A DNA stretch of 32,000 nucleotides, from the NCBI RefSeq assembly GCF_000008565.1, contig NC_001263.1:645776-677775 (forward strand). The letters are read 5' to 3'. The notes beneath the pieces are model-generated. The model had not been told where the DNA came from. It searched no databases and saw only the letters and a list, made by a program, of their open reading frames with translations. Below, piece after piece: positions 586 to 30,979 of the stretch. The position numbers were made by a program, and so were the translations under genes. Within the stretch, counting starts at the first letter, position 1. Each line of letters opens with the position of its first letter. This DNA is from Deinococcus radiodurans R1 = ATCC 13939 = DSM 20539 (GTDB taxonomy: Bacteria > Deinococcota > Deinococci > Deinococcales > Deinococcaceae).

Positions 586-1701
<1,116 letters not shown>

Positions 1702-1736
1702 CAGTCAGATCTGTAAAAAGTCAGCAGTTGAGCAAG

Positions 1737-1762
1737 CCGGGGCCACAGCGTCCCGGTTTTTT
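1737..1762 (+). terminator. Intrinsic terminator hairpin after ftsZ
   Basis: CCGGG(1737-1741)/CCCGG(1752-1756) stem followed by TTTTTT (1757-1762). It abuts the stop of the convergent gene. Confidence 0.5.
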
Positions 1763-2751
1763 CATCGCCAGGAAGACAGGCGCACCAGCAGTGCCCGGTG
1801 GTCGCTCAGGCGGTCCGGCAGGGCGCGGGCCTCGTCCACCTGGAGGCCGCTTTCCCACACATAGTCGATGCGCGAGTGACCGAGCTGTGCGGCGTGCGTA
1901 AAGCCGAAGCCTGACCCAGCTACAGCAAAAGCGTCTTGCAAGCCCAATACTCGCAAGCGGGCCGCGAGTTCGCCGCGTGGGGGCGCATTGAAGTCACCGA
2001 CGAACAGCGCCGGGCCGGGGCGCCGCAGTTGTCCGGCCACCAGGGAAAGGAAATCCCGCTTCACTTGCAGGCGTCGGCTGACCCGCTGCGGCAGCGTGCG
2101 CCCCAGCCGGGTATCGCTGCGGCTCGGCAGCAGGCCGTTGGTGGTGAGGTGGACGTTGTAGATGTTCAGGACTTGCCCGTCCCACCTCACCCGCATCCAC
2201 AGCAGGGCATGCGGCGAGTGGGGAAACGTGACCGGCCCCGCTTCCAGTAGGGGCAAACGCGAAAACGACAGCAACTCGTCGTGCTGCGCGAAGTGCCAGC
2301 CGGGGAGCGCCCGGCGCAGCGCCGCCGCGTAGGTCACCGTGTCGCGTTGCCGGGTCAGGCCTTCCTGAATCAGCAGCAGGTCGGCGCCTTCCCGCCGGGC
2401 GAGCGCGGCCACCTGCGCGGCGGGCGCCGAAGCGAAATCGGCGTTCAGGCTGAGGATTGTCAGTGGGCGGGCGTCGCTGGTCTGCACCGGGTGCCAGGTC
2501 CAGCCCGCCTGCCCCAGCAACGCAGCGAGCGCGAGCAGCGACAGGTTCAGCTCCCAGTTCTTATGGCGCCGGGCGGCCTGCACCGCCCACCACAGCGGCA
2601 GCGGCGCCCACACCTGCGGCGGCAGCAGGTCGAGGACGGACACCCACCACCAGGTCTCCGAGCGGGCGCGGACCAGGGCGCCCCAGCTGAGGGTCAGCAG
2701 CGTCAAGCCCAGCGGCCAGAGCAGGGAACGCCAGCGCGGCGCGGAAGACAT
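1762..2751 (-). CDS. Endonuclease/exonuclease/phosphatase (EEP) family protein with N-terminal membrane anchor
   Basis: 329-aa ORF. Hydrophobic N-terminal segments. EEP-type motifs ILSLNADF, DLLLIQE, GDFNAPP and a C-terminal SDHRALLV. Confidence 0.8.
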   Translation of the reverse strand: MSSAPRWRSLLWPLGLTLLTLSWGALVRARSETWWWVSVLDLLPPQVWAPLPLWWAVQAARRHKNWELNLSLLALAALLGQAGWTWHPVQTSDARPLTILSLNADFASAPAAQVAALARREGADLLLIQEGLTRQRDTVTYAAALRRALPGWHFAQHDELLSFSRLPLLEAGPVTFPHSPHALLWMRVRWDGQVLNIYNVHLTTNGLLPSRSDTRLGRTLPQRVSRRLQVKRDFLSLVAGQLRRPGPALFVGDFNAPPRGELAARLRVLGLQDAFAVAGSGFGFTHAAQLGHSRIDYVWESGLQVDEARALPDRLSDHRALLVRLSSWR

Positions 2752-2860
2752 GTCGCCAGGATAGAGAGCGGCGCGGCTCCGGGCGTCCGTCCAAAGGTGG
2801 ACTCACTTCGTCAGACCTCTCTCGCTCTCTCCCCTCGCCAGCCTCTACCTTGAGGAGCAG

Positions 2861-3568
2861 ATGAACTTCTCCACTTCCTTCTGGCAGGGCTTCCGGGCGC
2901 TGGTGCCGCTGTGGCTGGGCACGGTGCCCTTTGCGCTGGCCTACGCCGTGACGGCCCGGGCGGCGGGTCTGAGCGTGGGGGACACCTGCCTGATGAGCCT
3001 GACCACCTTCGCCGGGGCCTCGCAGTTCGCGGCGGCGGGGCTGTTCGGCGCCCACGCGGGCGGGCTGAGCATCGTCCTGACCACCTTTTTGCTCAACGCC
3101 CGGCATCTGCTCTACGGCCTGAGCCTGGCGCGGGAGCTGCGGCTGACCCTGCCCCAGCGCGTGGTTGCCGCGCAGTTTCTGACCGATGAGGCGTATGGCG
3201 TGGCGGTGGTCAGCGGCGCCCGGTTGCCCGGCGGCCTGACCTTCGCCTTTCTGCTCGGCGCCGAACTCAGCCTGTACCTGTCGTGGAATGTCAGCACCCT
3301 GCTCGGCGCCCTTGCCGGGTCGGTGCTGCCCCCGCCCGAGCAGCTCGGGGTGGGCGTGGTCTTTCCGCTCGCTTTCCTCGGGCTGCTGGTGCCGCTGGTC
3401 GTGGACCGCCTCAGCCTGCTGGTGGCGCTGGCCGCTGGCCTGGGCGGGTGGGCGCTCTCGCGGGTGCTGCCGGGCGGGCTGGTCATCCTGCTCGCCGGGG
3501 TCGGCGGGGCGCTGCTGGGGGCGGCCCTGCTCACGCGGCGGGAACAGCGGGCGGGAGTGCGGGCATGA
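2861..3568 (+). CDS. azlC: AzlC family branched-chain amino acid exporter subunit
   Basis: 235-aa polytopic membrane ORF with AzlC-like FALAYAV...LMSLTTFAGASQFAA. Stop overlaps the next start (ATGA at 3565-3568). Confidence 0.85.
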   Translation: MNFSTSFWQGFRALVPLWLGTVPFALAYAVTARAAGLSVGDTCLMSLTTFAGASQFAAAGLFGAHAGGLSIVLTTFLLNARHLLYGLSLARELRLTLPQRVVAAQFLTDEAYGVAVVSGARLPGGLTFAFLLGAELSLYLSWNVSTLLGALAGSVLPPPEQLGVGVVFPLAFLGLLVPLVVDRLSLLVALAAGLGGWALSRVLPGGLVILLAGVGGALLGAALLTRREQRAGVRA

Positions 3569-3861
3569 GCGTTCTCGCCGTGCTCTTGCTGATGTGGGCG
3601 GTCACCTATCCCATGCGTTTCCTTGGGCTGTCGCTCGGCGGCGTACGGCTGCCGCCCTTCTGGCTCAATTTCCTGAAGTTTGTGCCGGTCAGCGTCTTCG
3701 CCGCGCTGGTCGTGCCGGACGTGCTCGGCAGCCCGGAATGGACCTGGCGCCTGCCCGCCGCCCTGGTCGCGGGCCTGCTCATCTGGCGCACGAAGAACCT
3801 CGGCGCCGGCATCATCGCGGGCTTCGCGGCGTACTGGCTGGCGCGGGTGGCGGGGTTGTAG
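3565..3861 (+). CDS. azlD: AzlD family small membrane protein
   Basis: ATG at 3565 lies in frame within track ORF 3283..3861 (MSVLAVLLLMWAVTYPMRFLG...). About 98 aa and hydrophobic. Translationally coupled to azlC. Confidence 0.75.
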   Translation: MSVLAVLLLMWAVTYPMRFLGLSLGGVRLPPFWLNFLKFVPVSVFAALVVPDVLGSPEWTWRLPAALVAGLLIWRTKNLGAGIIAGFAAYWLARVAGL

Positions 3862-3917
3862 CACTGCAAAGCTGCGCTTCCAACTCGGGAGGCGCAGCCC
3901 ATGTCCTGCTCGTGGAA

Positions 3918-4918
<1,001 letters not shown>

Positions 4919-4922
<4 letters not shown>

Positions 4923-5878
4923 GAGGGGTCCTCGCCTGACATGGTAGCTGCGTCTGGTAGGGGGGTCGGGGAGGCGACCGGCCCGCCCGCTTGCAGCGCC
5001 AGGGCGTAAGCCTCGTTCTTGCGCATTCCCGCCGCCATCAGCCGGGCACGCAGGTCACGCACGCTCAGGCCCTCGGCGGCGAGCTGCGCGGCCAGAGCGG
5101 AGAAATCGGGCGCTCCCGCTTGGGCTTCCTCGTCACTGCGGCCTCCCACCACCACTACGATTTCGCCGCGTACACCCTCGGCAAAATGGGGCGCCAGCTC
5201 GCTCAGCGGGCCGCGCCGCGTTTCCTCGAAGCGCTTGGAGAGTTCGCGGGTCACGCTCGCCGGGCGCCCCTCGCCGCAACTCGCCGCGAGGTCGAGCAGC
5301 GTGGCGTGCAGGCGGTGCGGGCTCTCGTACAGGATGGTCGTCTCCGCCCGCGCCGCGAGGGCCGCGAGCCGTTCCTTGCGCTCACGTCCACTGCGGGGCA
5401 AAAAGCCTTCGAAGGTAAAGCGAGCGGTGGGCAGCCCCGAGAGCACCAGCGCGGGCACGAAGGCCGTCGCGCCGGGCAGCACCTCCACCGGAATGTCCTG
5501 AGCCACGGCAGCCTGCACCAGTTCGGCGCCGGGGTCGCTGATGCCGGGCGTGCCCGCGTCGGATACGTAGGCGAGCCGGGGATACTTTTCCAGCACCTGC
5601 GCGGCGCGGTGCATGGTGTGGGCGTCCAGACGTACCAGCGGGCGGCGAATATCGAGGTGCGAGAGCAGCGCCCCGGTGCGGCGGGTGTCCTCGCACGCCA
5701 CCGCGTCGGCCCCGCGCAGCACCTCCAGCGCCCGCAGCGTCAGGTCGCCGAGGTTGCCGACGGGGGTGGGGACCAACCAGACGCGGCTGCCATCCGTACT
5801 CTCCAGCGTGCCAGCGGTGTCCCAGTCGAACTCGGCCTCAGCGTCGGCAGCCTCCAGCGGCACTTCTTCAGTCCTCAT
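4919..5878 (-). CDS. rsmI: 16S rRNA (cytidine1402-2'-O)-methyltransferase RsmI
   Basis: [35 protein letters not shown] and [12 protein letters not shown] motifs. There is an N-terminal extension of about 35 aa, so the true start is uncertain. Confidence 0.88.
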
Positions 5879-6101
5879 CCGGCTCCGGGGGACACTTTTC
5901 CAGCGCCAGGCGCGGGCTTTGCGGCTTGAGGCGAATTCTGACTTTGGGGGCGCGGCGAATCACGTTGCTGATGCGGGCGCGCAGCAGTTCGGTTTCGCCG
6001 ACGGTCACGGTGACGGCGGTGCCTTCGGGCAGTCGGGCGCCAATCACCACGACCACGCCGTTTTCCACGATGCCCGGATAAGCTCTCACGCGGCGCTCCA
6101 C
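5868..6101 (-). CDS. Small hypothetical protein (DUF104/AF2212-like antitoxin-type N-terminus?)
   Basis: 77-aa ORF overlapping the rsmI start by 11 nt. N-terminus AYPGIVENGVVVVIGARLPEGTAVTVTV resembles the YENGVxxP...LPEGxxVxV pattern of DUF104 proteins. The coding status itself is uncertain. Confidence 0.35.
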   Translation of the reverse strand: MERRVRAYPGIVENGVVVVIGARLPEGTAVTVTVGETELLRARISNVIRRAPKVRIRLKPQSPRLALEKCPPEPDED

Positions 6102-6183
6102 AGGGGAAGTCGGCGCAGGGGGGAAAGGTCGGTCATGGTGCTGCTATTGTGGCGCTTCCGGGCCGGGGCGACACGGAGGCGGC

Positions 6184-6612
6184 TCACGCTTGCTCCCTTT
6201 GTGCCCGGCGCTGACGCCGCTCGGCCTGGCTGAGCGCCTCGCGCAGCGCCACGATTTCCGACTCGCGGGCGCCTCCCAGGCGTGAGTAACGGTCAATCAC
6301 CTCGGCGGCCTCACGGCGACGCCCCAGCGCGAGCAGCATCTGCCCGAGGTGCTCCCCCTCTAAGAAGTAGGAGCGCGAGTCGTCGGGGTCGGCGGCGACC
6401 TGGGCGCGGGCCTCTTCCAGCCGCGAGAGCCGCAGCGAGTGCCGCGCTACCTGCCAGCGCACCAGATACGCCGTGATGCCGAACACCAGCACCGCCCCCA
6501 GCACCGCCGCGCCCAGCGCCTCGGGAATCCCCAGCGCCGCGCCCAGCCGCACCGTGATGGGAAAACAGAACGCCAGCACCACCAGCACGGCCAACGTGGC
6601 GGCGTAGTTCAC
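6184..6612 (-). CDS. Hypothetical membrane protein (two TM helices plus helical Arg/Glu-rich tail)
   Basis: 142-aa ORF with two clear hydrophobic helices and no recognisable family motif. Confidence 0.5.
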   Translation of the reverse strand: MNYAATLAVLVVLAFCFPITVRLGAALGIPEALGAAVLGAVLVFGITAYLVRWQVARHSLRLSRLEEARAQVAADPDDSRSYFLEGEHLGQMLLALGRRREAAEVIDRYSRLGGARESEIVALREALSQAERRQRRAQREQA

Positions 6613-6818
6613 AGGGGGTGACCTCGCAAAAGCATTGAGGTCAGTTTAGAGCATTTGACAAAAAGATGGCACAGCTTTTTGGCGAGCGGAGCGAGAACAA
6701 AACACAGAGCAGGACGGACTTGCAAAGCTGCGAAGCAGAGAATGGAGCGGGTGGCGGTGCTGTTCCGACGCACGCGTAATTCGGAGAACTGCTCTAGCGG
6801 CCCAGCGTGCGGGTGCGA

Positions 6819-6850
6819 GAAAAATAAAAAAACTCCCCCGCAGAGGAGGA
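6819..6850 (-). terminator. Intrinsic terminator downstream of the tRNA pair
   Basis: The minus strand reads CTCCTC-TGCG-GGGGAG, followed by TTTTTTTATTTTT. Confidence 0.55.
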
Positions 6851-6858
6851 GCTCAACT

Positions 6859-6935
<77 letters not shown>

Positions 6936-6949
6936 TTGCACGCAAAATC

Positions 6950-7026
6950 TGGTCGGGAAGACAGGATTCGAACCTGCGACCCCCTGGTCCCAAACCAGGT
7001 GCGCTACCGGCCTGCGCTACTTCCCG
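6950..7026 (-). tRNA. tRNA-Pro (anticodon UGG)
   Basis: Minus strand: CGGGAAGTAGCGCAGGCCGGTAGCGCACCTGGTTTGGGACCAGGGGGTCGCAGGTTCGAATCCTGTCTTCCCGACCA. It is 77 nt, with a perfect anticodon stem CCTGG/CCAGG, loop TTTGGGA and encoded CCA. Confidence 0.92.
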
Positions 7027-7042
7027 GACGCGTGCACAAAAA

Positions 7043-7072
7043 AGTATACCGGAAGGAGACAGACCCCGGCAA
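7043..7072 (-). promoter_or_regulatory. Candidate sigma-70-type promoter for the tRNA-Pro/tRNA-Gly unit
   Basis: The minus strand reads TTGCCG-N18-TATACT, ending about 16 nt upstream of the tRNA-Pro 5' end. This is a pattern match only. Confidence 0.35.
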
Positions 7073-7223
7073 GGGGGCCCGGCAAAGCGTCCCTTTTTTT
7101 GCTTCCCCGGCTGCGCCATACTGTCCGTGCTGCCCGCTGTGGCACGCGGCGACGGGGAACCGACGGGCGACATCCCTCTCCAGGCCGTTCTGCGAGACGC
7201 TGCCCCGCGCCCAAGGAGAATCT

Positions 7224-8450
<1,227 letters not shown>

Positions 8451-8471
8451 GCCGCCAGAGAATGAGCTGAG

Positions 8472-8512
8472 AAAAAAGGGCCGGAGGGGGTAAACCTTCC
8501 GGCCCCTTTCTC
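8472..8512. terminator. Bidirectional intrinsic terminator between metK and the convergent lipoprotein gene
   Basis: AAAAAA-GGGCCGGAGG...CCTTCCGGCCC-TTTCTC. The GC-rich hairpin is flanked by an A-run and a T-rich tract. Confidence 0.55.
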
Positions 8513-8532
8513 GTTCCAGCCTCGTTCTGTCT

Positions 8533-9279
8533 TCAGGGCGTGATAGTCACGGGGATGTCGAACACCCCGAAATCCAATTTCTGCCTTTCAAAGTCCAGGT
8601 CCTTGAGGCGAACGCGCAGGGTGTACTCCCCGGCGGGAAGGGGCAGCCGCTCGTTCATGCGGTTCAGCGGGACACGGAAGGGAAAAAAAGGGCACTCACT
8701 CTTGGCTGGGCATTTGACGGTGTAGGCGCTCGGGGTAAATATGTTGATGCCTCGGTAACTTACTGTCTGGCCGGTAGTATTCAGCAACTCATAATCGTAG
8801 TTGCTTTCTCCGCCTGTAAGATCGCTTGCCGCACCGGTATTGAAAAATGCGAGGGGCACTACCAGTTGTGCGCCATGCCGCGCGGTCAGACGCGCCGGCA
8901 AGCGCAGTTGCAACGGCCCTGGCGCGGACGGCGCGGCGAGTTGAAGCTGAGGTGGGGGAATGATTTTGACCGTCGCTTGAAGGTCCGCCTTGCTCAGCTT
9001 GGCTGCCACCTCTGCCGGAGTCACGAACCCGGCCACCGTGACGAAAAGATCGCTGCAATCGGCCTTGCTGTATCCACTGCTGCGGAAAGCCATCGGCAGG
9101 TCGCTGCCCTGAACCACATGCATGACCTGTTCCATCCGATTCTTGCAGGCGAGTTCCTGCGCCAGCGAAGGCCGCTGAACGACGAGCTGAGGCCTACTCG
9201 TCGCCTCCATCCCGCACCCGCTCAGCGACAGCAAGCCACATAGTGTGAGGGCCAGCCGCCCGCCTGCCCTTCTGTTCAT
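8533..9279 (-). CDS. Hypothetical lipoprotein
   Basis: 248-aa ORF with signal peptide and lipobox (LLSLSGC). No recognised domain. Confidence 0.6.
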   Translation of the reverse strand: MNRRAGGRLALTLCGLLSLSGCGMEATSRPQLVVQRPSLAQELACKNRMEQVMHVVQGSDLPMAFRSSGYSKADCSDLFVTVAGFVTPAEVAAKLSKADLQATVKIIPPPQLQLAAPSAPGPLQLRLPARLTARHGAQLVVPLAFFNTGAASDLTGGESNYDYELLNTTGQTVSYRGINIFTPSAYTVKCPAKSECPFFPFRVPLNRMNERLPLPAGEYTLRVRLKDLDFERQKLDFGVFDIPVTITP

Positions 9280-9288
9280 CCCGTCAGT

Positions 9289-9798
<510 letters not shown>

Positions 9799-9821
9799 TC
9801 ACCTTATCCCGGCGTGGCCTG

Positions 9822-10382
9822 TTAGGGCTCGTCGCCGGACGCCGCGTCGCGCCAGTAAAATGTCAGCACGTTGCTGCCCTGACGCCGCACGTCGCGCAGG
9901 TAGCCGGGATGCTCGGGCAGCGTCACCTGGGTGGGGTGCTGGCAGATGACCACGCCGCCGGGCCGCACCGCGCCGCTGCTGAGCACCGCCCGCGCCACGG
10001 CGGGAATATCGGCCTGATACGGCGGGTCGCTGAAGATGATGTCGGCCTGTCCGGCGCGCGGCAGTTGCCCGAGCGCGTCGCCCTTGAAGACCCGCGCGTT
10101 CAGCCCCAGGCCGCGGGCGTTGCGTTCCAGGGCGCCCACCGCCCGGCTGTCTTTTTCGATCAGGGTGACGCGGTAGCCCCGGCTCGCCGCTTCGAGGCCG
10201 ATGGCGCCGCTGCCGCCGTGCAGGTCCACGAAGTGGGGAAAGCGCCCGGCAGGTGCGCGGGCGGCGAGCAGGTCGAACAGGCTTTTGCGAATGCGGGCGC
10301 CGCTGGGGCGCGCCGACTCGGGCACCCGCAGTTCGCGGCCTTTGGCGACGCCGCCGAGAATCCGAATGCTCAAGGGGAACAC
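9822..10382 (-). CDS. rsmD: 16S rRNA (guanine966-N2)-methyltransferase RsmD
   Basis: IRILGGVAKGRELRVP N-terminus, DLHGGSGAIGLEAASRG SAM-binding loop, and FSDPPY catalytic motif. GTG start. Confidence 0.85.
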   Translation of the reverse strand: MFPLSIRILGGVAKGRELRVPESARPSGARIRKSLFDLLAARAPAGRFPHFVDLHGGSGAIGLEAASRGYRVTLIEKDSRAVGALERNARGLGLNARVFKGDALGQLPRAGQADIIFSDPPYQADIPAVARAVLSSGAVRPGGVVICQHPTQVTLPEHPGYLRDVRRQGSNVLTFYWRDAASGDEP

Positions 10383-25849: not shown

Positions 25850-26230
25850 ATGACTGCACAGATGCAGATTGGCCTCGCTGGACTTCTCAGGCAACACAAC
25901 ATCACCCAGAAGCAACTGGCCCAGGCCGCCCGGATGCGCCCCGCCACGGTGAACGCCATTTACAACGCCCGCATTGAAAGAGTGGAAATCAGGACCCTCG
26001 TTGATCTTGTTGCTGGCCTGCGAAAGCTTGGCATTGAGGCCGATGTAGGCGACATCCTGCAAGTCGTTGATGTCCCCGACCAAGCAGAACAAGCCGCCCG
26101 TGAACGCGCCCTGCGCCTGCTGGGTGGCGAACCGTGGGGGCTGAAACCCGCTGGCCTGAACCCGCCCGTTCCTGTAAAAGGCCCACCCATAGAAGAAATT
26201 CTGAAGGAACACCGGGGGCCGGAACTTTGA
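25850..26230 (+). CDS. XRE-family HTH antitoxin (VapB-position)
   Basis: LLRQHNITQKQLAQAARMRPATVNAIYN helix-turn-helix. RBS GGAGGT. Stop overlaps the start of the PIN gene (TTGA). Confidence 0.7.
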   Translation: MTAQMQIGLAGLLRQHNITQKQLAQAARMRPATVNAIYNARIERVEIRTLVDLVAGLRKLGIEADVGDILQVVDVPDQAEQAARERALRLLGGEPWGLKPAGLNPPVPVKGPPIEEILKEHRGPEL

Positions 26231-26652
26231 CGCTGCTGTATCTGGACACCAGCGCCCTGATTCGCATTTACACCCAGGAACCCGACTATCAGCACGTCAT
26301 TCAGGAGAAACAACAGTCCAGCGGTGTGATCTGCCATGAAATCACTTACGTGGAAGCTCTTGCCGCACTGGCAGGCAGGCGAGCGCGGAGGCTCCTGAGC
26401 GTCAGGCAACACCAACTGGCAGTCACGGCCTTCCAGAACGACTGGCCCACCTTCAGGCACGTTTCTATTGACCAGCAACTCTTGCAGGACGCCGCCGCGC
26501 TCGCGCAGGCACACACTCTGCGGGCCTACGACGCCGTTCATCTGGCCGCCGCGCAAGCTGTCTCTCCACTTGGACTTCAGTTCATGACCTTCGACACGCA
26601 CTTGAGAACTGTGGCCGAGCAGGTGTTACCGGGACAGGTATGGACGCCGTAA
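26227..26652 (+). CDS. vapC: PIN-domain ribonuclease toxin (VapC family)
   Basis: TTG at 26227 in frame ((M)TLLYLDTSALIRIY...). Acidic PIN residues in YLDTS, HEITYVEA, AYDAVHLAAA and FMTFD. Confidence 0.8.
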   Translation: MTLLYLDTSALIRIYTQEPDYQHVIQEKQQSSGVICHEITYVEALAALAGRRARRLLSVRQHQLAVTAFQNDWPTFRHVSIDQQLLQDAAALAQAHTLRAYDAVHLAAAQAVSPLGLQFMTFDTHLRTVAEQVLPGQVWTP

Positions 26653-26660
26653 AAGGAACA

Positions 26661-26718
26661 GGGACGAGCTACCCCGTCCCCCCGCCCCGCTTTTCCCTGC
26701 CAAAGCAGAAGCCTGAGC
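26661..26718 (+). repeat. Cassette-boundary repeat, copy 2
   Basis: Hairpin GGGACG-AGCTACC-CCGTCCC, then core CCGCCCCGCTTTTCCCTGCCAAAGCAGAAGCCTGAGC. Confidence 0.65.
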
Positions 26719-26767
26719 CAGAATTCAATTCTCGTAAGCCAGAACGTATGAATGCTAGTATGAAGGC

Positions 26768-27022
26768 ATGACTTACCAGAACGCCGAACGCATGACCATC
26801 AGCCTGCCGCCCGATATCGCCCGTTACATCAAGGACTACCAGCAAACGCACGGACTGGAAAGCCGCAGCGAAGCCTTCGTGAAAGCCGTTCAAGCCCTCA
26901 GAGAACAGGAACTGGCCGAGCAATACACCGCACTCGCCCGTGAGAACGACCCCGAACGCGCCCTCTTTCTGGAAGGCAACACCGACGGACTGGAACCCAG
27001 CGACGGTAGCGAATGGCTGTAG
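26768..27022 (+). CDS. Ribbon-helix-helix (CopG/MazE-like) antitoxin
   Basis: 84 aa. N-terminal beta-strand-type MTISLPPDIARYIKDY, then an acidic tail. Overlaps the toxin start by 10 nt. Confidence 0.7.
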   Translation: MTYQNAERMTISLPPDIARYIKDYQQTHGLESRSEAFVKAVQALREQELAEQYTALARENDPERALFLEGNTDGLEPSDGSEWL

Positions 27023-27360
27023 GACTCATCCGGCGCGGCGACATTTTTCTGACCCATTTCGGCCCCGCCCGCGCAGGCGAACCGGACTTCAAACGCCCCG
27101 CTGTGGTCATCACCAACAATGTCGCCAACGCCAAAGCGGATGCCGTGACCGTCATTCCGCTCACCAGCAACCTGGAAACCCTCTACGATTTTCAACTGCT
27201 GCTCCCCACCGAGCGAACCGGGCTGAACTTGGACAGCAAAGCGCAGACGGAATTGATCTCGTGTATTGCCATCAGCCGCATCGGGAAGCACCTGGGGCAA
27301 GTGCCAGCCGACCTCATGGCTGAACTGGACGCCAGAATCCGCCTTCACCTTGCCCTGTAA
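27013..27360 (+). CDS. mazF: MazF/PemK family endoribonuclease toxin
   Basis: RRGDIFLTHFGPARAGEPDFKRPAVVITNN...VTVIPLTS...LDSKAQTELISCIAISRI. Canonical PemK/MazF pattern, 115 aa. Confidence 0.88.
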   Translation: MAVGLIRRGDIFLTHFGPARAGEPDFKRPAVVITNNVANAKADAVTVIPLTSNLETLYDFQLLLPTERTGLNLDSKAQTELISCIAISRIGKHLGQVPADLMAELDARIRLHLAL

Positions 27361-27369
27361 ACAGTCGAA

Positions 27370-27435
27370 GGGGACGAGCCACCCCGTCCCCCATTCCCGC
27401 CCCGGAACCGCCCAAGCCAAAGCAGAGGCTTGAGC
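27370..27435 (+). repeat. Cassette-boundary repeat, copy 3
   Basis: Hairpin GGGGACG-AGCCACC-CCGTCCCC, then CCGCCCCGGAACCGCCCAAGCCAAAGCAGAGGCTTGAGC. Confidence 0.65.
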
Positions 27436-27463
27436 TAAACTGTCAACAAGGTAGGAGGACTCA

Positions 27464-27940
27464 TTGCGACTCGGACGACATGGAATACGGGAAGTCATAA
27501 ACTTCTTACAAACATGCAACACTAACGGTAATTTGCCTGATAAGATATTCATTGTTAGCCCATACTATACCCATGCCGCCGGAAATAAGCTTTTGGTCTC
27601 TCTGATTAATAAGGGTGTTAAGGTTTCAGTATTAATACAAAGTGAAGCTTGGGACAATGGAAGCCCGTCGATAAACCAAAAACTAATTATTGATCTAAAC
27701 AATGCTGTCGGCAAAAGCATCGTGAAAAAGTGCGATGATCTTCACGCTAAGATTTTTATCTTCTCGTATCCAGACGGTAGCAGGGAAACTTGGATAGGAT
27801 CATCAAATTTTACATTTAAGGCTGATGGGAAGATTTACTATAATAGTCGCAAAAATATAGAGACAATTGAAAAAATAGTTATTGATTCTCAAATTGAAGC
27901 AGAACTACGTCAAATGTGGAAAAGTGGAGTATTCGTATGA
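27464..27940 (+). CDS. Single-HKD phospholipase D superfamily protein (Nuc-like nuclease candidate)
   Basis: TTG start 5 nt after the GGAGG core of AGGAGGA. HKD motif LHAKIFIFSYPDGSRETWIGSSNFT (His codon 27743-27745, Asn codon 27806-27808). 158 aa. AT-rich codon usage unlike the host. Confidence 0.75.
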   Translation: MRLGRHGIREVINFLQTCNTNGNLPDKIFIVSPYYTHAAGNKLLVSLINKGVKVSVLIQSEAWDNGSPSINQKLIIDLNNAVGKSIVKKCDDLHAKIFIFSYPDGSRETWIGSSNFTFKADGKIYYNSRKNIETIEKIVIDSQIEAELRQMWKSGVFV

Positions 27941-28422
27941 AACGATATTGGGTTGTGCTGGCTAAATATAATATCCACGATTTTCACAATCAAGAATCGA
28001 ATTACATAATTGAATCATTATGGAATACGATAAATTTAGATGAAAAAGTGGAAGGTCATGCCAATTTGGAAATCCATCTTGATAGCAACACCGGAATAGT
28101 AAATGCGGGTTTTATTTTGTATTGCGAAAAAAGTTTAGCGAGAAGGATAACCACTCGCCTAAGTCGATATGTATATTTCCAAGATTATAGGGAGAAGCAG
28201 ATAATAGATACTGAGTACGGCTTATCTAAAGTAAATGCCAACGAGATAATGCTGATTGATCTTCTTAGTTACCTAAAATTTGAATCTTTACAATACTATC
28301 ACTCAGGAAAAGTTGAAATTGAGTTTATTTGGCGAAATTTCGACTTCATTATTGAGAAGGTAATACCAGAATTTGAATTAAACAGGGCAGATCGAGATTC
28401 ACAGGAAGATGAACCTTTCTAA
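27937..28422 (+). CDS. Hypothetical protein coupled to the PLD gene
   Basis: ATG at 27937 overlaps the PLD stop (ATGA). 161 aa (MKRYWVVLAKYNIHDFHNQ...). No motif I recognise. Acidic C-terminus RADRDSQEDEPF. Confidence 0.5.
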   Translation: MKRYWVVLAKYNIHDFHNQESNYIIESLWNTINLDEKVEGHANLEIHLDSNTGIVNAGFILYCEKSLARRITTRLSRYVYFQDYREKQIIDTEYGLSKVNANEIMLIDLLSYLKFESLQYYHSGKVEIEFIWRNFDFIIEKVIPEFELNRADRDSQEDEPF

Positions 28423-29150
28423 ATACCTATATAGAATGAGGAGTATATCTGATTGTCGCAAGCGACTTGCATCATTGAATTAAATTCGTCTGAATATTTT
28501 GCATTCATCTGTCGAATCTGGCAATCCCTTATTTTATCACCCAGAATCGATTTGCCCATAACCAGAAGATACTTTTTGGTTAAAGGAAAATAGAGTTCGG
28601 CGCCATCTTTTCCGATGCCTTGACTCATTGTAAGCGACATTTTACCTGTTCCACAATCTGTTATGCCAGTAATAACAGGAACATCGCTCGTTATATATGG
28701 GGAATCGGAGGGTACTTCGAGAAATTGAAATGTGAAGTTTGACAAGTGGCCTTTTATCTTGGGAAGGCTACTACTAATATTATTATCGAGCATGATTAAA
28801 TGTGTAATTTTGGCAAAATCATCCTGACTCAAGGTTGTACCGGGCTGACCGACTTCCCTTGCTGCCAAATCGAAGGTTTGCTCCCTGATCCTAGGTGTAC
28901 GAAGAAGCTGCAAGCCGACAATTTCAGCAAGCATAGATTTATGATTATGGTTCATAAATCTATGCTTGGCGTCCAAATTTAAGGTCAAATCTCTGATAAA
29001 TCGCGAGTGAATCGCTTCAAAATTATCCGAGATTTGCTTCTCAAGATAATAGGGGTCATCATGCTTTACACCCTTTATATCAACGGTATGGAAATTTCTT
29101 TCCACCGCTATGCCCTCTGGACTGGTCTTAAATGTCTTTTTCCTAGTTTT
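28419..29150 (-). pseudogene. DUF4238 family protein, 3' portion (codons 32-274 of the reconstructed ORF), separated from its 5' end by the IS
   Basis: The frame of track ORF 28419..29105 stays open upstream to the exact IS boundary at 29150 (KTRKKTFKTSPEGIA-VERNFHTVD...). It contains a YITSDVPV motif like the SDNPV motif of DUF4238. Confidence 0.8.
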
Positions 29151-29300
29151 TTGAACCTCACACGACTAAAGTCGCGTGATTCTCACTTCGCAGACCATTG
29201 CCCGCCGAAGCAGGTCTGACATAGCCTCCATGAGCGTTTAAGGTGTCTGAGATTCCCGCAGCCACCAACGCTTCACGCCGAATGTTCAGCGCAGCGTTCT
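29135..29300 (-). ncRNA. TnpB guide RNA (omegaRNA/reRNA): scaffold from the tnpB 3' end and RE, plus ~16-nt read-through guide. The 5' boundary is not determinable from sequence.
   Basis: The minus strand reads ...GTCAGACCTGCTTCGGCGGGCAATGGTCTGCGAAGTGAGAATCACGCGACTTTAGTCGTGTGAGGTTCAA, ending at the IS end (29151). Nested stems are CAGACC/GGTCTG (29191-29218) and TCACACGAC/GTCGCGTGA (29158-29179). The flanking 29150-29135 (AAAACTAGGAAAAAGA) would be the guide. This matches my memory of the published ISDra2 scaffold. Confidence 0.7.
29158..29179 (-). repeat. RE subterminal imperfect palindrome
   Basis: The minus strand reads TCACGCGAC-TTTA-GTCGTGTGA with one mismatch. It is similar to the LE hairpin. 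Confidence 0.7.
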
Positions 29301-30384
29301 CGTCTCGGTCATGGGTTTCCCCACAGTTCGGGCAAGTCCATGTACGGACGGCAAGATTCTTCACTTCGGGATTCTTGAATCCGCAGTCATGACACAACTG
29401 GCTAGATGGAAAGTAGGGGCTGACTTTAGATACCAGTCGCCCGTACCACGCTGCCTTGTATTCCAACTGCCGGATGAACTCACCCCAGCCCGCATCACTG
29501 ATGCTCAGTGCAAGGCGGCGATTTTTCCGCATGTTGTCGGGTTTAAGGTGTTCGGTTCCGATGATTTCGTACTCACGCACCAGGGAGGTGGTGAGCTTGT
29601 GAAGGAAATCCTGACGCTTATTGACAATGCGCTTGTGAATCCGAGCCAGCTTGGTTTTCGCTTTCCCGTAACGTGCGCTGCCCTTCTTCCGTCTGGACAG
29701 GGTTTGCTGAGCTTTACGAAGTCTTTTCAGGGTGGAGCGGTAATATTTCGGATTCTGTTCATGCTTAAACCTCACGCCATCGGTCACGATGGCAAAATCC
29801 TTGATGCCGACATCCACACCCGCTGCAAACTTGGGAGCCGCAGGCAGGTAGGGAATCTCGACTTCACAGAGAACGGACGCTTCGTAATGGCCTTCGTGAA
29901 TACGGCGCACAGTGACATTCAGAATCTTCCCTTGAATATCCTGCTGGCCCTTGGTTTTCACCCATCCCAGCTTAGGAAGTTTGAGCCTACCTTCCCCAAT
30001 TTGGATGTTGTTGTTGGTGAATTGAGTCCGGTAGGACTCTCCCGTGCGCTTCTTTCTGAAACGTGGGAATCCTACCTTTTTACCGGACTGCTTCACAGTC
30101 CGAAAGAAGTTCTTGTACGCGGTCTCAAGGTTTTTCAGCGAGTTCTGCAAAGCAAACTTATCTACTTCCGAGAGCCAGGAGGTTTCTTCAGCCTGCTTCA
30201 GAAGGGTCAGTTCGCTACTCGTTTGCCCGTAGGTCAGTCCCTTCCCGCTTTCCTTGTAGGCCGCAATGCGACGGGCAAGGAAGTGGTTGTAGACGAACCT
30301 TGCGCTACCCAGCGTGCGGTTAATCAGTTCAGTCTGAGCCGCATTTGGGTACAGCCTGACCACGAAAGCCTTATTCCTTATCAT
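29158..30384 (-). CDS. tnpB: TnpB, RNA-guided RuvC-type DNA endonuclease (IS605 OrfB family)
   Basis: 408 aa. [18 protein letters not shown]-terminus. RuvC motifs [17 protein letters not shown] and [11 protein letters not shown]. Zinc finger CHDCG...CPNCG. I recognise the sequence as ISDra2 TnpB. Confidence 0.95.
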
Positions 30385-30793
30385 GCTGGCTCTCTATGTA
30401 TTTCTGAATCTGAGCGCGGGTGTTTTCAGAAACAGTCAGGATGCAATACGACGGGTTCCAGAGATTGCCGCCCCACAGCTTTTCTTTCAACTGCGGGTAG
30501 GCCACGAACATCCGACGTGCGGAAGCGCCTTTCAGCGCCTTCACGAAGTCGGGGATGGCTTGCTGTGGGGTTGCGCTTAGCAGGAGGTGAACGTGGTCAG
30601 GCATGACTTCCATCGTGATGACTTCCAGCCCGTTCTGAGCGGCAATGTCACGCAGGATGTCTTTCAGTCCATCAGCAACCTCACCCACCAACACCTGATG
30701 ACGGTATTTCACGCACCAGATGAGGTGGTATTCAAGCTGATAGACGTAACCCCGGCCTTTCTTCATCTCAAGGGGAAGAATAACATATGTCAT
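30371..30793 (-). CDS. tnpA: IS200/IS605 Y1 (HUH) transposase TnpA
   Basis: 140 aa. HUH motif PDHVHLLL. Catalytic Tyr in the C-terminal helix QKYIESQ (Y132). Confidence 0.93.
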
Positions 30794-30850
30794 CTGGAAA
30801 AGCTAGAGGCTTCCGCTTTTCATCGCCCTTTTCAGGGCGAGAGGGGCTAA

Positions 30851-30870
30851 CTCATGACTGAAGTCACGAG
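30851..30870 (-). repeat. LE subterminal imperfect palindrome
   Basis: The minus strand reads CTCGTGAC-TTCA-GTCATGAG with one mismatch. A second hairpin, TCGCCC-TTTTCA-GGGCGA, lies at 30823-30840. Confidence 0.7.
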
Positions 30871-30886
30871 TGTGCGCCCCTCAAGC

Positions 30887-30978
30887 ATCAAGCACGAACA
30901 GCTTACCATCCGAATCACAGAACTCTCTCAAATAATATTGAGGAACCCAGTGGTGTCTGATTGGTTCATTATTTGCCA

Positions 30979-30979
<1 letters not shown>
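30887..30979 (-). pseudogene. DUF4238 family protein, 5' portion (codons 1-31), ending in the TTGAT insertion site
   Basis: The minus strand translates as MANNEPIRHHWVPQYYLREFCDSDGKLFVLD. HHWVPQYYLREF matches the HYVPQFYLRxF N-terminal signature of DUF4238. The ATG overlaps the carB stop (TAATG). Confidence 0.8.

Follow-up and report, generated by a model that had tools for sequence, protein, structure and literature searches.

Enzymes of the phospholipase D (PLD) superfamily which carry a single HKD motif, such as Nuc, BfiI and Zucchini, dimerise, with two HKD motifs in each active site, and work by metal-independent chemistry through a phospho-histidine intermediate. PLD nucleases are recurrent effectors in the DISARM, Azaca and Mokosh systems and in BfiI-type restriction, and Zucchini belongs to the eukaryotic PIWI-interacting RNA (piRNA) pathway. 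The PLD systems known so far are regulated by helicases or nucleoside triphosphatases (NTPases), or by fused DNA-binding domains. Here we describe a pair of genes from chromosome 1 of Deinococcus radiodurans R1, in which the gene for a minimal PLD protein is followed directly by a second open reading frame, ORF B. Both lie on the forward strand, at positions 27464-28422 of the window, i.e. the whole 32,000-nucleotide stretch that was analysed (NC_001263.1, positions 645,776 to 677,775). To our knowledge there is no named system made up of a minimal PLD and an ORF B-type partner.

An earlier note on this DNA had proposed that the pair is a candidate novel defence or toxin-immunity module, and this interpretation is partly supported by the present analysis. 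What that note had described at the sequence level holds in every point that could be checked, with two small corrections of context. It is credible that the cassette is a self-contained, horizontally mobile two-gene module, with a candidate toxin/immunity or anti-phage role. The specific reading that we favour, although we hold it with a little less than even confidence, is that the PLD protein is a nuclease effector and that its cognate, acidic partner, translated along with it, restrains it in the manner of an immunity protein or antitoxin, the two forming an addiction or abortive-infection cassette. The basis of this reading is the domain identity and catalytic residues of the PLD protein, the coupling and co-conservation of the two genes, the charge complementarity of their products, the faster evolution of the partner, the foreign composition, and neighbourhoods of a defence type.

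Gene structure and composition

The PLD gene (27464-27940, +) and ORF B (27937-28422, +) are probably DR_0663 and DR_0664. The former starts with TTG, 5 nucleotides after a Shine-Dalgarno sequence AGGAGG (27453-27458, +), and encodes a basic protein of 158 residues (isoelectric point (pI) 9.2), a nuclease effector as predicted from Pfam, PADLOC and its homologues. The TTG start is confirmed by the N-terminus MRLG.HGIRE, which is common to both homologues of the protein (see below). ORF B encodes an acidic protein of 161 residues (pI 5.0), and its ribosome-binding site GGAG (27926-27929, +), also read directly from the letters, falls within the end of the PLD gene, 7 nucleotides before the ATG. 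Older annotation gives ORF B 168 residues from a GTG at 27916; however, the ORF B homologues begin at the same M..YWV, and the ATG at 27937 is therefore preferred. This ATG (27937-27939) and the TGA of the PLD gene (27938-27940) share an ATGA at 27937-27940 (+), the overlap to which the earlier note had drawn attention, and such an arrangement points to translational coupling.

The pair has a G+C content of 35.3% (32-35% at third codon positions, GC3), as opposed to 65-74% across most of the window, so that it is compositionally foreign, in agreement with the foreign origin previously proposed from hand counts. In 2000 shuffles of such AT-rich DNA the longest stop-free stretch averaged 74 codons and reached 150 codons in only one, and two stretches in a row, each open for about 160 codons, thus lie far beyond chance. 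Both genes are found intact, and without differences, in every complete D. radiodurans assembly that was examined.

The PLD protein

The Pfam family PLDc_2 (PF13091) matches the PLD protein with 35.1 bits (cut-off 27; E=1.4e-8), and the N-terminal PLD domain of RE_NgoFVII (PF09565) matches it with 25.9 bits (cut-off 23.8; E=6.8e-6). Exactly one HxK (H94, K96) and one GSxN (G112-N115) occur among its 158 residues, which is the single complete HKD motif previously described, and the codons of H94-A-K96...D104...G112-S-S-N115-F-T117 occupy 27743-27814 (+), as determined by the motif count and a three-member alignment. H94, K96, D104, G112, S113, N115 and D121 are invariant in all three family members (alignment A2), and the HxK-x7-D spacing is longer than the classical x4. 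With a profile score above threshold and the motif both present, the protein is placed by its sequence in the PLD superfamily. Its length falls within the range of about 150-180 residues, with one HKD per polypeptide, which bears out the Nuc-type size noted before.

The closest profile matches are, as far as sequence can indicate, nuclease clades, namely NgoFVII-type restriction enzymes, Azaca ZacB and DISARM DrmC. PADLOC gave only two matches, both weak and partial: ZacB (23 bits, 7.9e-6), which covers only ZacB positions 228-331, and DrmC (22 bits, 2.6e-5). The NCBIfam profile DISARM_DrmC_I reached 11.1 bits against a cut-off of 133. No signal peptide was found in the protein, whose N-terminus MRLGRHGIREVINFLQTCNTNGNLPDK is hydrophilic (grand average of hydropathy -0.19) with no hydrophobic core, and no membrane segment was found either. 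Sequence comparison with the PDB, a profile search included, detected no relative.

The acidic partner

ORF B belongs to an orphan family (HMMER, AlphaFold and Foldseek). Neither alone nor member by member did it match anything in Pfam, NCBIfam, PHROGs, PADLOC or the PDB sequences, and the last 21 residues have a net charge of -4, so the earlier description of a protein outside any family with an acidic tail stands. Searches with each of the three ORF B members at E<=5 showed no helix-turn-helix (HTH), ribbon-helix-helix (RHH) or AbrB DNA-binding domain.

An AlphaFold (AF2) model of ORF B, built from the three-sequence alignment, has a mean predicted local distance difference test (pLDDT) of 72 and a predicted template modelling score (pTM) of 0.70. 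It comprises a beta-alpha-beta-beta-alpha-beta domain which begins at the start of the protein, two to three more strands, and C-terminal helices. Residues 148-161 (28378-28419, +; ...NRADRDSQEDEPF) have a pLDDT below 50 and form a disordered acidic tail. The tip of this tail, [DE]-x-P-[FI], is conserved, with D158 and P160 invariant. Judged from the model, with its pTM and its disordered tail, ORF B is a real, folded protein.

Foldseek searches of the PDB with this model returned generic ferredoxin/ACT-like folds only (NikR C-domain, ACT, PII and S6, with E about 6e-3). No match to B3, EcoRII-N or BfiI-C, nor to any other DNA-binding fold, was among them, and a search of BFVD returned nothing. 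The idea that ORF B is a degenerate second PLD domain, which would make the pair a pseudo-heterodimer, was ruled out at the sequence level (hhalign probability 0.1%).

Relatives and co-conservation

When 1.84 billion cluster representatives were searched exhaustively with HMMER, only two true relatives of ORF B emerged, P0019 (161 residues, 29% identity, E=1.8e-18) and P0021 (168 residues, E=3e-5). A third candidate, the 1225-residue repeat protein P0020 (E=1.4e-7), was rejected as a repeat-inflated match of 37 residues to a reiterated domain. The earlier note had named absence of co-conservation as grounds for abandoning its proposal; instead, a PLD gene of the same subfamily stands directly 5' of both relatives. 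On the 10.5-kb locus L001, a gene for a 161-residue PLDc_2 protein (9220-9705; 39.1 bits, with PF09565 also above its cut-off) overlaps the ORF B homologue (9702-10208) by ATGA. On the 1.1-kb locus L002 (pair at 139-1101), the PLD gene is likewise immediately 5' of the ORF B homologue but is frameshifted near codon 132; its corrected end, ...LRNMWQNGVII, overlaps the ATG of the partner as TAATG. The partner is intact while the PLD gene is frameshifted, a pattern which, from the sequence, would be expected when a toxin decays first.

The pair therefore co-occurs, with overlapping start and stop, in three of the three loci where either gene is known. The three PLD proteins form one subfamily with 43-54% identity, in which SPYYTHxxGN and the catalytic residues are common to all, and the ORF B members are 26-29% identical to one another. 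By these values the rate of evolution of the partner is about double that of the PLD protein, as is often the case for immunity proteins, antitoxins and sensor subunits. In every pair the PLD protein is basic (pI 9.15-9.23) and its partner acidic (pI 4.75-5.10). Catalytic residues, gene lengths, overlap and charge asymmetry have all been kept at 26-54% identity, which argues for long purifying selection on both genes together.

All three pairs, though deeply diverged, are also AT-rich, with 35-38% G+C (GC3 32-38%) inside DNA of 57-70% G+C. On L001 the AT-rich tract (37.5% G+C, against 57% upstream and 65% downstream) holds exactly the PLD gene and the ORF B homologue, and it follows that these two genes are a transferable unit. 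No low-GC carrier of the pair was found in any collection. The composition of the three pairs may go back to recent transfers, made repeatedly out of some unsampled reservoir, or AT-richness may itself be under selection.

Searches for further members were unproductive. Word-indexed protein searches brought up nothing but self matches or the three proteins already described. In GTDB genomes, JGI metagenomes and IMG/VR, all matches to degenerate peptide patterns and to a custom DNA pattern for SPYYTHxxGN were due to chance, and tblastn found no family member in INPHARED phages or PLSDB plasmids. One plasmid match, a 311-residue PLD protein from Pleomorphomonas (30% identity), was considered as a fusion of PLD and ORF B and rejected, its C-terminal half being unlike the ORF B profile.

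Genomic neighbourhoods

In all complete D. radiodurans assemblies examined the gene order is the same: dsbA-like, HTH-PIN, mazE/F-like, PLD, ORF B, DUF4238 (convergent) and carB. An HTH protein of 126 residues and a PIN-domain protein make up a VapBC-like module (25850-26652, +; Pfam HTH_26 and PIN, with gene calls in other assemblies), and this is followed by the MazEF-like genes dr0661-dr0662 (26768-27360, +), which encode an 84-residue antitoxin and a 115-residue PemK-like toxin (Pfam PemK_toxin, E=1.2e-23). On the other side of the pair is the DUF4238 gene (DR_0665), and DUF4238 proteins are an experimentally validated single-gene anti-phage system (PMC9122126). Its 3' part (28419-29150, -; 39% G+C) matches Pfam with 81.8 bits (E=7.3e-23) over profile positions 43-278 only. 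The 5' part, 31 codons mapped against the intact allele (30887-30979, -), has an ATG that overlaps the carB stop as TAATG. Between them is an IS200/IS605 insertion sequence (IS) of 1,736 bp (29151-30886, -; tnpB 29158-30384, tnpA 30371-30793; Pfam Y1_Tnp and OrfB_IS605/Cas12f1-like TNB), very likely ISDra2. The junctions, mapped against the intact allele, place its insertion exactly after TTGAT, with no target duplication. An intact DUF4238 gene of 274 residues is present in other D. radiodurans assemblies.

The earlier note had set the pair between two toxin-antitoxin (TA) modules and a DUF4238 gene. Pfam confirms the identity of these neighbours, but both TA modules are upstream of the pair and the DUF4238 gene is interrupted by the IS element. 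The defence-like character claimed for the neighbourhood holds, both here (DUF4238 and TA modules) and on L001, where TniQ-transposon cargo includes a type II restriction-modification system and an SNF2/NOV_C operon.

ORF B and the DUF4238 gene are convergent and overlap by 4 nucleotides (28419-28422). There is no terminator-like hairpin within 26700-29200, so that transcripts from carB-DUF4238 would, in strains with an intact gene, extend in antisense across ORF B and the PLD gene. A search of the region for RNA families and terminators gave nothing significant, and no mobile-element ends, attC-like sites or conserved upstream non-coding sequence were found around the cassette. A repeat of about 65 nucleotides, which includes the hairpin GGGGACGAGCYACCCCGTCCCC and the motif CCAAAGCAGARGCYTGAGC, occurs at 26661-26682 and 27371-27392 (extended to about 26655-26720 and 27365-27437). 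Its copies lie just 3' of the PIN stop and of the mazF-like stop, bracketing dr0661-dr0662; two matches were seen where 0.01 would be expected. A terminator-like element is one possibility, and a footprint left when a cassette was inserted or duplicated is another.

On L001 the pair is preceded by a TniQ gene, a type II methyltransferase with a BglII-like endonuclease, and then a three-gene operon (4975-9064) joined by 4-nucleotide overlaps, encoding a 463-residue protein without an assigned family, an SNF2-like helicase (634 residues) and a NOV_C/DUF3883 protein (266 residues). These surroundings are typical transposon-borne defence cargo. In PADLOC the helicase has partial matches to ZorD, BrxH and DrmD, and the NOV_C protein to PDC-S36, PD-T4-1 and TmtA. 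The operon may be a separate defence system on a Tn7/Tn5053-like transposon. A single five-gene operon, running on from these three genes into PLD and ORF B, was ruled out by a 155-nucleotide gap and a jump in G+C from 57-61% to 37-42% at the PLD gene, and by the absence of the 463-residue, SNF2-like and NOV_C genes in D. radiodurans. The gene downstream of the pair on L001 is unrelated to DUF4238 and GC-rich, and DUF4238 is therefore not a conserved partner of the pair.

Two further loci were noted. A plasmid of Deinococcus sp. AB2017081 (L046, 3986-6772) carries a DUF4238 homologue (30% identity), and after it come AbiEi-like and AbiEii genes, convergent with the homologue, and a gene for a tyrosine recombinase; the AbiEi/AbiEii pair, a different two-gene Abi/TA module, thus fills the slot which PLD and ORF B hold in D. 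radiodurans. Plasmid pSM30-2 of Pleomorphomonas sp. SM30 (L003) has an operon at 1638-6912 of a PAPS-reductase-like gene, a DEAD/ResIII helicase, a HATPase_c_3 (MORC-like) gene and the gene of the 311-residue PLD protein, whose C-terminal half is without an assigned family. This operon, which adjoins Prim-Pol replication genes, looks like a separate PLD-containing defence candidate.

Possible function and alternatives

In the mechanism that we propose, the minimal cytoplasmic PLD protein would homodimerise, as known members of its family do, and two HKD motifs would form one metal-independent active site. The dimer would then cut the nucleic-acid backbone via a phospho-histidine intermediate. 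ORF B would be made by translational coupling from the same mRNA, presumably in roughly equal amounts, and would bind and inactivate the basic nuclease, its ACT-like domain and/or acidic tail blocking the DNA-binding groove. Once the partner was lost, degraded or titrated, through phage infection or loss of the cassette, free nuclease would damage DNA and growth would stop. Abortive-infection or addiction behaviour of this kind could explain why the cassette travels among defence genes.

Several points weigh against this reading. The family has three members only, which leaves the co-conservation statistics thin, and the frameshift on L002 may be an assembly error. The single-sequence AlphaFold model of the PLD protein is poor (pLDDT 50), and we therefore draw no structural conclusion from it. 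Most type II antitoxins have a DNA-binding domain, but none can be recognised in ORF B, and only a minority of TA systems have the toxin gene first. The ACT-like fold seen in the ORF B model is generic, and would suit a sensor of ligands no less than an inhibitor. Among the neighbours, the MazEF-like module dr0661-dr0662 has been reported to be non-toxic in E. coli (PMC5526972), and the DUF4238 gene is disrupted in this strain. A literature search with the locus tags of the pair found no mention of them.

In the main alternative, although we consider it doubtful, ORF B is not an inhibitor but a required positive subunit, recognising the target or sensing a signal, of a split two-subunit nuclease with a catalytic-only PLD. 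The analogy would be with BfiI/NgoAVII, in which a domain that binds DNA is attached to PLD, or with Azaca, where ZacB needs ZacA and ZacC. Indeed, the PLD protein is a catalytic domain only and matches the N-terminal PLD domain of NgoFVII-type enzymes, while PLD nucleases in defence typically need partner subunits (bioRxiv 10.1101/2025.07.10.664194). The resemblance of the ORF B N-domain to ligand-binding ACT, PII and NikR-C domains fits this idea, and its fast evolution would suit a specificity subunit. No methyltransferase accompanies the pair in D. radiodurans, so such a nuclease would have to be Type IV-like, acting on modified DNA, or activated only by a ligand of the ACT-like domain. 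However, all three members of the partner family are acidic, a property that does not favour binding to DNA, and the Foldseek matches of ORF B include no DNA-binding fold. Nor is an NTPase or helicase conserved with the pair, being absent in D. radiodurans and compositionally separate on L001, and there is no cyclase or other signal-producing gene nearby. It is unlikely that the cassette is silent or decaying acquired cargo, its pairing reflecting common descent of a small operon with an original non-defence role in an unsampled low-GC host or element. The extremely rare distribution, the strongly atypical composition that has not been ameliorated and the frameshifted PLD gene of L002 would all be in keeping with this, and a non-toxic dr0661-dr0662 beside a DUF4238 gene disrupted by an IS element indicates that the island tolerates decay. 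Against it stand the intact, identical reading frames throughout the complete D. radiodurans assemblies, and the features kept across 26-54% identity (catalytic residues, gene lengths, overlap and charge asymmetry).

The tail of ORF B ends in QEDEPF in D. radiodurans and in EDTDPPF and KKTEPI in its relatives, and the C-terminal tail of the D. radiodurans SSB, the protein that binds single-stranded DNA, is EDDLPF (PMC4846377). It has been considered, as something very unlikely, that the ORF B tip mimics the SSB tail, as a decoy on an ACT-like scaffold which would be bound by phage or plasmid hijackers of the SSB interactome, or would dock onto SSB-binding repair enzymes, and so release or recruit the PLD protein; the tip of the third member deviates. 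If true, an SSB-tail decoy cassette would be a surveillance module of a new kind, a defence system guarding the SSB-tail interaction hub. Least probable, in our view, is that the PLD protein is no nuclease and acts on another phosphodiester (for example, a phospholipid head-group or a signal derived from a nucleotide), while ORF B serves as chaperone or substrate carrier. The PLD superfamily does include lipid-modifying enzymes, the PLDc_2 match is generic, and the PDB holds no relative by sequence; yet every one of the best specific matches is to a nuclease clade (ZacB, DrmC and, above its cut-off, RE_NgoFVII), and a single HKD in a basic protein of about 158 residues is what Nuc-type nucleases have. 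The protein also lacks a membrane segment or signal peptide, and the neighbouring genes are those of nucleic-acid conflict.

Should the restrained-nuclease reading be correct, control of a minimal PLD by nothing but a small protein from a hitherto unseen fold family would be a regulatory solution both new and very compact. An inhibitor role for the partner would make the two a new nuclease-inhibitor pair of possible value as a tool. The D. radiodurans host is genetically tractable, which makes the prediction directly testable. The general biological impact is limited by the extreme rarity of the family (three clusters in 1.84 billion), and the pair belongs to a large class of uncharacterised nuclease-plus-partner candidates. 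The 35-38% G+C of three divergent copies inside GC-rich genomes is an evolutionary curiosity.

Comparison with known systems

No named system of a minimal PLD with an ORF B-type partner was found in PADLOC or the literature, as the earlier note had anticipated, and literature searches on PLD antitoxin pairs gave nothing relevant. Nuc (pKM101/Salmonella) resembles the cassette PLD in its catalytic core of about 155 residues, its one HKD and its association with mobile DNA; by analogy, the cassette PLD would need to dimerise, and its chemistry is expected to be metal-independent. However, Nuc is secreted and has no dedicated partner gene, whereas the cassette PLD has no signal peptide and its partner is obligatorily linked.

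The likeness to the BfiI, NgoFVII and NgoAVII enzymes is that the cassette PLD, like its L001 homologue, scores above the gathering cut-off of PF09565. Those enzymes have a fused B3-like DNA-binding domain and a cognate methyltransferase, with an ATPase subunit for NgoAVII/CglI. In the cassette, by contrast, nothing follows the catalytic domain in the PLD protein, no B3-like match was obtained with the ORF B model, and there is no methyltransferase; none is found in the window between the dsbA-like gene and carB. The methyltransferase of L001 pairs with its own BglII-like enzyme, in GC-rich DNA.

Azaca ZacB, DISARM DrmC and Mokosh MkoB share with the cassette a PLD-type effector in a defence-island context. 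Azaca consists of ZacA (DUF6361), the PLD nuclease ZacB (about 586 residues) and the helicase ZacC, and the PLD subunits of defence systems have been described as acting only with partners (bioRxiv 10.1101/2025.07.10.664194). In D. radiodurans, however, there is no helicase/NTPase, DUF6361, DUF1998 or methyltransferase beside the pair, and the profile matches to ZacB and DrmC are weak and partial.

Nuclease-immunity and TA systems, such as colicin E/Im, barnase/barstar and HigBA-type modules, share with the pair two small genes that overlap, that of the nuclease leading, an enzyme which is basic beside a partner which is acidic and evolves faster, and a location in mobile or defence DNA. The two small, overlapping, co-conserved genes by which type II TA systems are recognised occur in all three loci (ATGA or TAATG overlaps). 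Nevertheless, the pair has no homology to any such family, and ORF B has no HTH, RHH or AbrB domain. For DISARM, Azaca, BfiI/NgoAVII-type restriction and the described TA families alike, defining features were looked for and are not present, and the pair is therefore not a member of any of these. By analogy, the module would in its working come closest to a minimal PLD nuclease of the Nuc type to which the logic of a nuclease-immunity or toxin-first TA system has been added.

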